Source of the DNA: Mustelus asterias
Lineage: Eukaryota
DNA: 64,000 nucleotides
Assembly: GCF_964213995.1 (NCBI RefSeq)
Contig: NC_135820.1
Span: 61,628,001 to 61,692,000, forward strand
Direction of reading: 5' to 3'
The translations under genes and the position numbers were made by a program. Positions 7,801-63,084 of the stretch are shown here, one piece after another. The notes under the pieces were generated by a model. That model was not told the origin of the DNA. It worked only from the letters and a program-made list of their open reading frames with translations, and searched no databases. Every line of letters begins with the position of its first letter. Position 1 is the first letter of the stretch.

Positions 7801-10800
7801 ATCTAAGCTGCTCGAAATAACTCAACCTGCTTTTCAACTCACTCTGAAAGCTGACTTTTAATTCCTCTTGCTGAAGCTTATGATACTTTGGTGGACGACC
7901 AATCCTGGAAAAAAAAGGAGAAACAGCAGAACATTAAAGAAAGATGTATTAACCTGACGAGTGAATTCTCACTCTTCCGTGGCTGTTTCATTATCCCCGA
8001 CAGTACACTTTTTGTCAGCCCCATGTGTGTACGTGCATTTCTGTGTGTCCCTGCGTGATGATGGGGGAAAATAGACACCATTCTGTTCACCAGCTGAAAG
8101 AGAGTATCTGAAATTATGCCACTACAAAGTGAGGTGCAAACATTTGAAACATCAAAGAACCAGTGTTTGTCAAAAGAATCACATTACAGAGCACTGTTTT
8201 CTCTTGGCACTCAGGAGATACAACGTGCTATTTGCCAGTGCGGACATTGTAAGTTCCAGTAATGTTAAATTTGCCCATAAGTTAAGACCAACTTTGCAGA
8301 CTATTTTCAGTCAGATGGTTTGTTCCTGGACAAGAACCTAGATGTGGTACTCTTGAGTAAATTGTCAAGGCCTTTTCTCTCAATCACTTTATTGTCGTGA
8401 CACACTTTCATGTTTATTATGTTAATCCTGAATTTGGCTGTGTAACTGTGCAAAATAAGTTTACTTTTATTTTTAAATAAACACAGTACTTCATCCGAAT
8501 GCATCAGTGTTTAAAATGTATGTGTTGGCGATCTGTGAAAGGACGATAAATACTGCAAAACAGAACAAGGATTTAAACAGAGTTCACACATAAAAAATGT
8601 CATCCAACAGTTCAAAGGTTCAATAAATGTTAACATCTTTACTAAAGTCTGAAAATGTCTGAACTTAAAAAATATTAAGAAATCACCTGCGTTAGTTATG
8701 AATCATATCGAGTCAACTGTATTTTTGATGAGGTAACTGCTTTTTGTCAAAGGAATCAGACAGTGAGATAAAAATTCTTCCTGTTACAATGACACTGGAA
8801 ATGTCTGAACATTTCCGATTAGACACTCCGACGAAAAAAAACCAAACATTTCACAAGGAAGACTAAACAGAGAAAACATCATGATCAGCAGACTACTTAA
8901 TCCAAATATTTTAAGAGGAAAACATTTTCTGAGACTTTTTTATTGCTTACCGTTGCAAGGCTATACCAGATGGTCAGTCAAAGGCTAGTCATGAAACAAC
9001 ATAGTAAGATCTGCCTGATAACAGGATGGGCAGAGTTTTTCCTATCCTACCTGTGCTGGGTTTTGTGGCAGGCAGGAGCAGGCAAAAAAGTCAGAAATCC
9101 GCATAAAAACAGGCTTGCAATTCTGTAATAAGTCTTCAGACGCAGAAGTCCCTTCACTAAAATCCCTTTAGTTACAAACTCCAACAGCAGTACACAGAGT
9201 GCGAGCAGTTAGCAATCTATCTCCGGGGGTGTCAGAGGAACTGACACACCCAGTTAAGTACAAGGCAAAGACTCCGTGATTGGTTCATCAATTGGATCCT
9301 TAATCAGGGAGTTCATACTCCAATAGGCCAACCTTAATGGCCTGACTGAACTCATTACAGAATCTCCAGATGGTGGGTTAATGGTGGGTTAGTTATCCTG
9401 CTGAATTGTGGTGTGAATGCCATTGGCATTCATTTAACATCTCAGGAATGCTCATTACAACAGCTGCTCGCCAAATCTCGTCACACCTTCCAATCTGTTG
9501 TCACGCCAAATGGGAAACAACATCTGCCTTAACTCCATTTGCAAATGAATGGCCTGCACAAGTCTGTTATCAGTTTGCTCATGATTTTGAGGTGAGTGTA
9601 ACATATATAGCCCATCTGCCAGAGCGCTGCACCACTATTATTGATGGATGCCACCTTGCTGGGGCTGAAGGATTAGTCTCCTTCTGCTCTCTGCCAATAT
9701 CGACCATAAAGACATGTGCCACAATTATCCCGTTGCGACCCGCACCTTTTCTGTCGGGTCGTGGTGGGAGATACGCGTCTGCGGTCTTGAACAGGGACTT
9801 GCGCATGCGCCGGGAACGGATGCGCATCTCCCAGAGCTGGCGAACAGTCGCCGGTCAGACCATGCTGGAAACCGGCGGGAAGGCAGGTGAGTCATTTAAA
9901 TCTGTTTTAAATATGCAAGTTAGTTAATTATCGGGACCTTTCAGGTCCTGATTGAATCTCCCACCCCGCCAGGAGTATTTCAATCCAGCGGGGTTCACAC
10001 TAGTTCACCATGTTCGGGGAATTATTGGGAGACCCCGTCGGAATGAAAGGGGGGCAATCGGGGCACCCCATGGGGTCGGGGGCGGCTGGGTGTGGTGCCC
10101 TCTTGGCATAGGCACCCTGGCAGTGCCAGCCTGTGCCCCCTGGCACTGCCCAAGGGCAAAGTGCCCATGCCTAGGAGGCACCTTGGCACTGCCCATCGGG
10201 CATTGAGCAGTGCCAAGGGGGCGGGGCCTATTGTGGACAGGGCCTAAGGGCGATCGGTGGGGGTGGAGGGGGTTCCTGCTGCCATTCTGCAGACAGGATT
10301 GGTCTGGGATGGAGGGAGGGCAGCGACTGGGGCGGGCTGGGGGGTCGTCTCCCAGGGGTGGGATCCTGCCTCCGGGGGGGTCTGACCCAGGGGAGCGTCA
10401 GCAGGGGGAGGGGGTCTGCTGGGATGAGGAGGGTGGGGGTGATCGTCACTGCTGGGGAGGGGGGGATTTAGTTGGGATTTAGAACAGTTTTCCTGTCAAT
10501 TCAGCACTTTTGGGAGAATCGCCCCCATAGTATTCATGCAGGCCTCCACTTTCAGACACTGAGCAGTACTGCGGCTGGTCTTGTGCGGGTGGGGGGGAGG
10601 GGGAGGCACAGGGGTCTTCTGCTCCTGGTGGTTGTAAGGACACCACTGTGAGAACTCCACTTGTTCTTGAGACTTACCTGATGAAGGAGCAGCACTCCAA
10701 AAGCTTGTGCTACCAAATAAACCTGTTGGACTTTAACCTGGTGTTGTGAGACTCCTTACTGTGTGAACTCCACTTGCACAAACAAACATTACGACAGGGG

Positions 10801-13800
10801 GTGGGGTGTGAAGGGAGGTTGGGGGGGTGACAAATACAAGGGGAGCAATGGGAAAGGAAGGCTGTGTAAGGATTGTGAGGGGGAGGAAGGGGACATAGTG
10901 GAAGGCGGGGGCAAAGGAAGTGGAGGAGGATGAGGAACATAGGAAGGCAGAGGGTAGGCCGAGGGATGGGAAGCTGCAGCCCAACAAGGGTACAGGAAAC
11001 ACTGACAAACAAGGGGGGAGGGGGTGGGGGCAATGAAATAAAGCATTTTGACTGGAAAGAGATGCATGCAGACTCTGGAATAGGAAGTGGGGATTGTTGG
11101 TGTGGCACATGAGGAATGGGTCACACAGAAGATCAGGAAGTGGAGGAGGGTTGGTTTGAATGGGAAAACTGTAGTCCTTAGCCCTCAAGGCAATGGAAAA
11201 CTCTGCGAAAGTCAAAGTCCTTGGTCTGGGATTTACAGTCAGGAGTCACAGAGTACAGATACTCCCATGGTGATGTGGGAGCAGGCAGTCCAGGGGCTCC
11301 ATGGACCTCATCATCAGAAATCAGAGCTAGGAGACAATCTAGGGGTGCAGTGGGTATGCAGCAGGGGGAAATCACTGGGAGCATGATGTACTTATTCCAC
11401 CACATCTATGGGGTCCATTATTACTGGCGAAGGCTGGAGAACAGCAGGAGGAAGCTCTACCTTCACATCATGTGGTTTGATATATATATATCTGGCACAC
11501 GGACAGTGAGAGAGGGAGAGTCGAATTCCATTTGGAAATAAAGTGAAGGATCTGCATCTTGCTGTACCACAGTAATGGCTCAAAATGAAAGTAACCACGA
11601 ATCTGATCAGGATAGGTCGGAGGTAGTGTGGAAGGAGGGAACTGCTTAGTTAAAGCGCCCCTTCTGGGGTGACCTCTAACTTGTTGCTGTTGCAACAAGG
11701 GGAGAAAGCTACTCAAAGCCAATGCTTCATTTTCACTGTTAAAGGGACACTCAGAACTCAGTGGCTTAACATCATAGCTTATTTTGACGCAGTTCTTTGG
11801 TTATTTTAATTATGCAATTATACTTCATGGCATTTACCGTTATTACCTCCCATGATGTCTTGATTTCTTTCTTCGACCAAATGACAAGAGGTTTCTTTTT
11901 CGGGAAGATCCTTCTGCATCTGACATCTCTACCTTCATCCTTGCTTGGTTCCTTTCAGCTAATGGACAGCCCGACAGACGATGATGGGCAGTGAACTTTC
12001 CGGTAACGTGCCCTGAGCCATCGCAACCTGGAGTTGGGCACTTCCTGAGGCAATCAGTGTGCACAAAACAGGTTCAGTCACCACACTGAGTAAATCTATT
12101 CCAATAAGACTCAGTGTGGGGTAACATAGATAGAAATAAAGTTCACGATTCACATGAGTACGCAGCATAAAAATATGATGTACCTCTTTCACGAAGATGG
12201 ATTCTGTCCTTCATTGTAGCTCACTTTGCAAATGATTTAAAAAATTACAAGACTCTTGGGCCAGGATTCTCCAATCTTTGTTGCCCTGCCACAGGTCAGC
12301 AAGAACAGAGAATTTGGCGCTCAGCCAACACTCCATTGCCTGCAGCGGGACCGGAGAATCCCAGCCAGGTGAGGTAGGAGAATTCTGGCTTTAAACTTCA
12401 AAATAAACATAGCTGCTCACAGCTATGCTTCCAAAACATTAGGAATTTGGCAATTGGGAAGGGCAGCTTTGCATGTGTGCAAACATGCAGGAACAAATCA
12501 GCCTCCTGGCATACAGGACTCCAGCTATTCTGAATTACATCCTGCCAGATGTAAGGACAATAATTACACATTATTCTGTCTATTTGTGTTTGCAACCATG
12601 TTCTCCGGAAAGAGAGTAAGGATGTTTCCTCTTGTTCCTGCCTGTACATCTGCAGCAAAAGTTCCCAGATGTTATAGGTCACATCAAAACTGCCACTTTG
12701 TCTTGGTATGTGGTGGTTTCTGATTTAACATGGTAACGGTGGCACAGTGGTTAGAACATAAGAACTCGAAGCAGGAGTGGGCCATCTGGCCCCTCGAGCC
12801 TGCTCCACCATTCAATAAGATTTTGGCTGATCTTTTCGTGGACTCAGCTCCACTTACCCGCCCGCTCACCATAACCCTTAATTCCTTTGCTGTTCAAAAA
12901 TGTATCTATCCTTGCCTTAAAAACATTCAATGAGGTAGCCTCAACTGCTTCACTGGGCAGGGAATTCCACAGATTCACAATCCTTTGTGTGAAGAAGTTC
13001 CTCCTCAACTCAGTCCCAAATCTGCTCCCCCTTATTTTGGGGCCATGCCCCCTAGTTCTAGTTTTACCCGCCAGTGGAAACAACTTCCCTGCTTCTATCT
13101 TATATATTCCCTTCATAATCTTATATGTTTCTATAAGATCTCCCCTCATTCTGCTGAATTCCAATGAGTATAGCCCCAGTCTACTCAGTTTCTCCTCACA
13201 AGCCAACCCTCTCAACTCCGGAATCAACCTAATGAATCTTCTCTGCACCCTCTCCAGTGCCAGCACATTCCTTCTCAAGTAAGAGACCAAAACTGTACAC
13301 AGTACTCCAGGTGTGGCCTCACCAGCACCTTATACAGCTGCAACATAACCTCACTGTTTTTAAACTCCATCCCTCTAGCAATGAAGGACAACATTTATTT
13401 TGCCGCCTTAATTACTTGCTGCACCTGCAAACCAACTCCTTGTGATTCTTGCACAAGGACTCCCAGGTCCCTCTGCATAGCAGCATGTTGCAATTTTTTA
13501 CCATTTAAATAATAGTCCAATTAGCACTGCTGCCTCACAGTGCCAGGGTCCCGGGTTCGATTCCCGGCTTGAGTCAGTGTCTGTGTGAAGTTTGCACATT
13601 CACCCCGTGTCTACGTGGGTTTCTTTCAGGTGCTCCGGTTTCCTCCCACAGTCCAAGGATGTGCGGGTTAGGTGGATTGGCCATGCTAAATTGCCCCTTA
13701 GTGTCAGGGGGGCTAGCTAGAGTAAATGCATGGGGTTATGGGGATAAGGCCTGGGTGGGATTGTGGTCGGTGCAGACTCGATGGGCCAAATGACCTCCTT

Positions 13801-62718: not shown

Positions 62719-63084
62719 AGAAGGACAAGGGCAGCAAATGGATGAAAACATCAGCTCCTGCGAATTTCCCCCCAGGCCACATACCATTCTGATTTGGCAC
62801 CATATTGGCACTCCTTCACTGTCGCTGGGTCAAGATCCTGAAACACCCTCCTTAACAACACTGTGGATGTAACTACACCACGTGGACTGCAGTGGTTCAA
62901 GAAAGTGGCTCACCAGCACCTTCACAAGGGCAATGAGAGATGGGCAATAATGCTGAATGAATCTAGCCAACGATGCCCATGTCCCGTGAAAGAAAAAAGA
63001 ATGTCACAGAGACTCAGATTGATTGCCACTTTAATTCTCCATCCAACTCCCACTCTCACCCAACTACTTTCCACTGTTTGAGTC

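Follow-up and report, generated by a model that had tools for sequence, protein, structure and literature searches.

Penelope-like elements (PLEs) are retrotransposons whose published anatomy combines a pseudo-long terminal repeat (pLTR), a hammerhead ribozyme motif, a tail on one side, an inverted arm and a target-site duplication (TSD) (PMC3846280, PMC8557442, PMC11167929). In rotifer Penelope the pLTR is inverted, the tail is optional and confined to one arm, and the TSDs measure 8–10 bp (PMC3846280). How insertions with an inverted arm and a single tail come about is listed as an unsettled question in PMC8557442. The PLE protein of the anole cuts and extends both target strands from two start sites that bound the tail, primes without homology and is predicted to form a dimer, the steps after priming being left unvalidated in that account (PMC11167929). 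Solitary minimal hammerheads are widespread and have been ascribed to truncated PLEs, whose ends occur with such hammerheads in thousands in vertebrate genomes (PMC4209133). Here, we report six insertions, lettered A to F, in the window, a stretch of 64,000 nt from the genome of Mustelus asterias (contig NC_135820.1, positions 61,628,001 to 61,692,000). They are very probably dead-on-arrival, 5'-truncated insertions of an endonuclease-bearing PLE with full-length copies elsewhere in the genome. This identity and a double-priming mechanism of integration, taken together, provide the best explanation of the data, at a probability that we put at roughly 0.8.

Architecture of the six insertions

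All six copies are present at the start positions given in an earlier reading of this DNA (hereafter the original prediction). Its description of them as short does not apply to E (646 nt) or to B (483 nt), the latter owing its length to a short interspersed nuclear element (SINE) of about 305 nt that interrupts its second arm. With element positions numbered from hammerhead C3 in copy E, copy A is a single sense arm from about -6 to +97, and copies B–F are head-to-head pairs of arms in which both outer ends are 3' ends of the element. These outer ends fall into two classes. Untailed ends lie at +97, +93, +92, +94, +95 and +91 in A to F, respectively, and tailed ends at +132, +130, +128, +127 and +130 in B to F, the tail of about 36 nt being complete in B, C, D and E and represented by its last ~13 nt in F. 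One end of each class was found in all five two-armed copies (P = 0.031 for independent choice at p = 0.5). Two earlier claims are thus borne out, that of a fixed asymmetric end, which lies within +91 to +97 in 6/6 copies, and that of an extra tail on the other end in five copies, full in B–E and partial in F.

Each insert is flanked by an exact TSD of 12 bp (A, C), 11 bp (D, F) or 10 bp (B), or of either 12 or 11 bp in E, where one base is common to TSD and tail. The predicted TSD of 10–12 bp per copy therefore holds in 6/6, against a background, in the same search, of 2 repeats of at least 10 bp among 300 randomly chosen pairs of positions. The termini carry no A-tail. The features of published PLE anatomy recur throughout: a pLTR with hammerhead (descriptor matches in C and E, decayed homologues in A, B and F), a tail on exactly one arm (5/5 two-armed copies), an inverted, head-to-head and 5'-truncated arm with a variable breakpoint (5 of the 6 copies) and a TSD without a poly(A) end (6/6). 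On every non-coding feature the inserts would accordingly rank as PLEs, judged by sequence, and the match of pLTR, hammerhead, one-sided tail, inverted arm and TSD agrees with one of the two readings offered by the original prediction, that of heavily truncated PLE insertions. The class is a known one, ordinary truncated PLE ends, and not a new ribozyme family.

The inner ends vary from copy to copy. On the tailed and untailed arm, respectively, they lie at -4 and +31 in B, -5 and about -30 in C, +75 and about +28 in D, -182 and -182 in E, and +119 and about -173 in F; E holds an additional copy of -179 to -120 between its two arms. None of the 15 copy pairs shares a structure, and the lengths range from 101 to 646 nt. 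This diversity bears on the second reading of the original prediction, a non-autonomous, retrozyme-like hairpin family whose short unit would itself be transcribed, self-cleaved and re-inserted. Since all six structures differ, the outcome that the prediction had itself named as refuting such a family is the one observed. Tandem hammerheads were absent as well, with at most one hammerhead per strand per insert, and four of the six copies have no intact core. A density of six copies in 64 kb, the lack of coding sequence, the existence of several sequence subtypes (ungapped identity between copies is 72–92%), the intact cores of the two youngest copies and the proposed derivation of retrozymes from pLTRs (10.64898/2026.07.22.740005) all speak for a family of this kind. 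A single minimal hammerhead was nevertheless uncleaved in vitro (PMC4209133), and the hammerhead pairs have a predicted probability of 0.0 in the whole-insert folds described below, so that we regard an independent hairpin family as extremely improbable.

A different source is suggested by the two longest copies as measured on the element, E and F, which belong to different subtypes. Both arms of E stop at one template base (-182) and F stops about 9 nt from it; a stop near -182 may mark the 5' end of the RNA. The source could then be a deleted, non-coding PLE derivative with a transcript start near -180, mobilised in trans, as pLTRs alone are able to mobilise sequence (PMC3846280). Two copies only display this stop, strong 5' truncation would produce a similar pattern, and the window shows no element sequence further 5' than -182; such a short master is improbable in our judgement.

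State of the hammerhead core

The core is intact in two of the six copies (C and E), damaged in A, B and F, and absent from D, which ends short of it. A descriptor of the minimal hammerhead gave four matches at two loci, namely both arms of C and of E, with a background mean of 0.04 matches in 50 dinucleotide shuffles. The earlier count of six hammerhead insertions has consequently to be lowered, D being core-less and C and E alone intact by descriptor. A predicted loss of G12 in older copies was found in A and F (G12>A), and copy B has kept G12 and lost A14, A15.1 and G10.1. An Rfam scan of the whole window produced no hammerhead family among 11 matches at E ≤5, and no short-region scan was run; the matches were of microRNA type, on palindromes, plus weak chance matches. 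An unrelated, near-perfect palindrome of about 65 nt at 46217–46281 was the origin of microRNA-like matches.

In the five aligned cores 91% of cells pair. Two of the nine pairs of the two stems show a two-sided change, both in stem I and both contributed by copy C alone. This level of covariation was reached by 18 of 500 shuffles, a figure from five sequences that the tool does not offer as a probability; slid controls showed no two-sided change. The reported covariation of stem I thus shrinks to two pairs, both from copy C, and does not extend to TAC:GTG, which is one-sided. Stem II, said to vary while staying paired, has no two-sided change, two one-sided changes and two broken cells. Variation at core position 7 had been taken as a sign of selection, a view that we do not retain: the C/T difference lies in a CpG, as read from the letters.

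Folding of the single-stranded cores placed helices I and II in the predicted minimum for B, C and F and not for A and E. None of the cores was more stable than its shuffles (z -1.5 to +0.9), and folding energy therefore lends no support to a ribozyme. In transcripts of the whole inserts C and E all seven hammerhead pairs tested had a predicted probability of 0.0 on either strand, because the two arms pair with each other. By its core motif the fold is recognisable as a real PLE hammerhead. The copies have received it with the pLTR of the parent element, in which it was maintained, and lose it once inserted; all six show decay and not selection. The selected fold of the original prediction is not sustained here, as the cores have decayed in most copies and the covariation comes from one of them.

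Some further observations concern the sequence around the core and the tail. In E (59761–59769, +) and F (62536–62544, +) stem I and core, taken in antisense, match the consensus of a 5' splice donor, and the mirror copy of this donor-like word in E lies on the strand of the host gene. The first 14 nt of copy A (10664–10677) resemble the untailed 3' end of the element, with an exact match of 8 nt; copy A is possibly a very small partial tandem, with a stem I variant that is an artefact of the junction. The last letters of the longest tail, that of copy B (26675–26715, -), are ATG; a branch-point-like word, a pyrimidine stretch and a CAG within this tail suggest a putative intron end just before the start codon of the parent. 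The frame leading to this ATG has 20 residues only.

Proposed double priming, junctions and target sites

We consider double target-primed reverse transcription the most likely mechanism, with chances a little better than even. The protein, probably as a dimer, would nick both strands 10–12 nt apart at a site of loose symmetry, TG-NN-[TSD]-NN-CA, where TSD and motif are observed, and would leave two 3'-OH ends. One of these would prime complementary DNA (cDNA) at RNA site 1 (+91 to +97) and the other at site 2 (+127 to +132), about 36 nt further downstream, the interval between the sites becoming the tail. The two end classes are seen in the copies, and two internal start sites are known in vitro for the anole PLE (PMC11167929). 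Each strand would be paired with one site and a single RNA would be read again. Both cDNAs would stop early at variable points and then be joined head to head, sometimes, as the junctions suggest, through 2–4 nt of microhomology or a re-copied segment. In the single-armed copy A only one cDNA would have been kept.

The relation between the arms is informative in this regard. They overlap in 4 of 5 two-armed copies, which means either a second reading of the template or the use of two RNAs; the ending of both E arms at -182 favours one RNA, since two passes to the end of a single RNA would leave such a shared stop. Each arm of C, D and F contains sequence that is absent from the other, so neither arm is a plain copy of its partner. 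These relations also bear on a PLE origin in which the palindrome arises by self-priming or fold-back of a single strand, after which the endonuclease trims the tail from one arm. Self-priming is favoured in PMC3846280, and resolution by the endonuclease in PMC8557442. The arms within a copy are indeed nearly identical and share private variants (1/278 differences in E; 2/97 in C, both at the two outermost compared positions and none internally), the apex of B is a complementary stretch of 4 nt able to snap back, and trimming of one arm would likewise yield one tail per insert. Against this, the untailed arm reaches further inward in C, D and F, which demands an added trimming step, and these three copies need loops of about 25, 45 and 290 nt. 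The tailed and untailed ends moreover coincide with start sites of reverse transcription in vitro (PMC11167929). Fold-back, the chief rival of double priming, is possible, and we lean against it.

The apex of copy B (26796–26799) is the 4-nt stem I of the hammerhead, and the predicted cleavage site marks the start of the untailed arm of this copy. We rejected an origin of the inner ends by ribozyme cleavage: a start at the cleavage site is seen in 1 of 11 arms, this same arm of B, for which microhomology in stem I accounts equally well. Copy D stops about 3 nt from the predicted site.

Classical primer microhomology at site 1 was likewise rejected, the match between primer and template being 0, 0, 0, 0, 2 and 2 nt, which agrees with the homology-free priming of the anole protein (PMC11167929). 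A different regularity was found at the target itself. When each TSD edge is followed outward along the strand that terminates at it, positions +3 and +4 are CA in 8 of 12 edges, and this forms the dyad TG-NN-[TSD]-NN-CA around the duplicated segment. Among random sets of six sites drawn from this window, 2 in 50,000 reached eight edges for any dinucleotide at any scored position (corrected P = 4e-5). If D or F is left out, CA is present in 7/10 edges, as many as were attained in 23 out of 50,000 sets of five sites; over all six copies, a slack of one base raises the count to 10/12 edges, with CA on both sides in 4/6 sites. No single base at the TSD flanks was significant alone (P = 0.23).

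Copies D and F lie at homologous positions of one old family of long interspersed nuclear elements (LINEs), not more than 2 nt apart and in the same orientation (P = 0.0025 in a simulation for any pair this close). Uninterrupted LINE paralogues near 18271 (-) and 32411 (-) carry the D/F TSD sequence once. We rejected descent of D and F from one old insertion, as the two are of different subtype and structure and the TSDs of each bear the private bases of its own LINE copy.

A likeness was also noted between the DNA outside the TSD edge and the first bases of the insert at the same junction (summed longest match 40, with 26 expected). The resemblance is found at offsets of 2–3 nt (P = 0.0002–0.012 over five window sizes; junction-specific P = 0.005) and is weak at offset 0 (P = 0.03–0.54). 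Taken by themselves, the two youngest copies yield no significant resemblance (P = 0.14), and P = 0.013 was obtained for one of the five shifted controls too. With a tolerance of one mismatch or a 2-nt gap, the TSDs of A and F lengthen to about 19 nt and overlap element-like sequence. We treat the resemblance as a lead only, part of which may come from TSDs of A and F that are longer and imperfect.

At these six loci the TSDs, the two classes of outer end, the inner ends, which are unique to each copy, and the flank motif fit a dimeric PLE protein with two primings. Extended to vertebrate PLEs in general, the proposal would be that they integrate as a symmetric dimer, with two GIY-YIG domains that read the dyad and nick about one helical turn apart and with reverse transcriptase (RT) domains committed one per start site on the same RNA, the inverted arm and one-sided tail being the footprint of double priming and not of fold-back. 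This generalisation is tentative, and we would sooner expect it to fail than to hold. In its boldest form, in which the RNA start sites also help to choose the target, it is distinctly improbable; the signal behind this form, the resemblance just described, depends on allowing an offset of 1–3 nt.

Several results weigh against PLE identity with double priming. No PLE reading frame, a single one for a telomerase-like RT and a GIY-YIG endonuclease, was found in the window copies, and the link to such a protein is therefore indirect. Among the frames of at least 120 aa, 13 of 27 were scanned and contained MBT and LINE-type domains only, and the 54-residue open frame of copy E, compared with proteins, gave nothing among 10 candidates. 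An equal stop of the two arms is seen in 1/5 two-armed copies only. The left edges of B and F are without CA even with one base of slack, and both the CA motif and the D/F coincidence are post hoc observations on six loci. The anole enzyme favours ATT sites in AT-rich DNA and showed no difference in start site between strands in the experiments described (PMC11167929), so that a strict pairing of site and strand is a proposal. Later deletion at palindrome centres could also yield unique breakpoints and asymmetric arms.

As a family, the six inserts are of little importance, such truncated PLE ends being abundant in vertebrates (PMC4209133). Their weight lies in a testable integration footprint and not in the ribozyme. 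Because the copies are so short, a few hundred bases span both junctions, the apex and an exact TSD, and a genome-wide set could therefore test double priming versus fold-back directly; it would also give the site preference of the endonuclease.

Genomic surroundings and known systems

The window holds an L3MBTL-family gene (Table 1) with an MBT repeat (E = 5e-22), a C2HC zinc finger and a SAM-like C-terminus; its 5' exons were not located in the window. Copies A and B lie between exons of this gene and C–F 5' of all the exons located. Of 2384 protein matches to the zinc-finger exon, the best 120 were nearly all MYT1-type proteins. About 31% of the window is self-repeat, and the SINE within copy B belongs to its commonest repeat family. 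The SINE and LINE types would suit a cartilaginous fish. Within 59600–60420, copy E sits in an RT fragment of a CR1-type LINE, and its right flank matches a LINE at 15910–16025. Profiles built from five copies and from an E arm revealed no further copies or other hammerhead families within the window, the best other match being weak (29256–29328, E = 0.24). The location of four copies within 7.8 kb is not significant as clustering (P = 0.07).

Table 1. Positions in the window of the six inserts, their parts and the host gene.
Feature	Position	Strand	Length (nt)	TSD	Remarks
Copy A	10652..10776, insert 10664-10764	+	101	10652-10663 / 10765-10776	One untailed arm; decayed hammerhead (G12>A); intron of host gene
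Copy A, extended TSD				10645-10663 / 10758-10776	
Copy B	26665..27167, insert 26675-27157		483	26665-26674 / 27158-27167	Arms share 4 nt, hammerhead stem I; core damaged; intronic
Copy B, tailed arm	26675-26799	-			
Copy B, untailed arm	26796-26817 and 27123-27157	+			
SINE in copy B untailed arm	26818..27122	- (from sequence)	~305		Later insertion
Copy C	54651..54930, insert 54663-54918		256	54651-54662 / 54919-54930	
Copy C, tailed arm	54663 to ~54795	-			Intact minimal hammerhead, C3 at 54790
Copy C, untailed arm	~54800-54918	+			Intact minimal hammerhead, C3 at 54830
Copy D	56603..56745, insert 56614-56734		121	56603-56613 / 56735-56745	Within old LINE; hammerhead core absent
Copy D, untailed arm	56614 to ~56678	-			
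Copy D, tailed arm	~56681-56734	+			
Copy E	59656..60325, insert 59668-60313		646	59656-59667 / 60314-60325	
Copy E, untailed arm	59668-59945	-			Intact minimal hammerhead, C3 at 59763
Copy E, extra segment	~59944-60003	+	60		Re-copied, at apex
Copy E, tailed arm	60004-60313	+			Intact minimal hammerhead, C3 at 60186
Copy F	62462..62729, insert 62473-62718		246	62462-62472 / 62719-62729	
Copy F, untailed arm	62473 to ~62705	-			Internal 15-nt deletion; G12>A
Copy F, tail	62706-62718	+			Last ~13 nt only
Copy F, extended TSD				62454-62472 / 62713-62729	
L3MBTL-family gene, exon-bearing frames	1705..34591	-			Host context; closest solved structure L3MBTL1

In twin priming of the LINE L1, both target strands prime reverse transcription and an inversion results within one TSD; its two arms do not overlap, and one of them starts at the poly(A). 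The arms described here overlap in 4/5 copies and both start from fixed internal sites. In the literature consulted, mostly open papers with little of the older Penelope work, a symmetric target motif or a strict rule of one arm per site is unreported, which is a weak negative.

Metazoan non-LTR retrozymes (PMC7229834, 10.64898/2026.07.22.740005) resemble the six inserts in being non-coding, hammerhead-bearing and pLTR-related, with TSDs possible. They are described as direct tandem repeats of a fixed unit of 150–450 nt, whereas the inserts are inverted, variable and single, with ends that are not set by the cleavage site. With the minimal type I hammerhead of metazoan PLEs (PMC4209133) the intact cores share the CUGANGA and GAAA boxes, an unpaired base after A9, the G10.1-C11.1 pair, a helix II of 5–6 bp, a helix I of 3–4 bp, the absence of helix III and self-complementary positions 15.2/16.2. 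Unlike the dimeric active form of that ribozyme, they have no partner in the same orientation, and the motif is intact in 2/6 copies.

The endonuclease-positive PLEs (Penelope/Poseidon, Neptune and Nematis; PMC3846280, PMC8557442) share with these copies the head-to-head inverted pLTR, strong 5' truncation, a tail of 30–40 nt at one end only, the TSD and a hammerhead in the pLTR. They differ in that the copies are without the coding part, in which a Cys-rich linker between RT and endonuclease and the RT phylogeny separate the Penelope/Poseidon from the Neptune clade, and in that the targets here are marked by a CA/TG dyad and not by microsatellites or AT-rich runs. PAc, a Poseidon element of Anolis carolinensis, prefers ATT in AT-rich DNA and has a reading frame that starts in hammerhead stem II (PMC11167929), whereas in the present copies none of the three sense frames stays open from hammerhead to tail, to judge from the letters, and the tail of copy B, the longest, finishes with ATG. 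The likeness to PAc lies in its two fixed 3' ends, about one tail apart and downstream of the hammerhead, and in the little or no homology between primer and template (PMC11167929).

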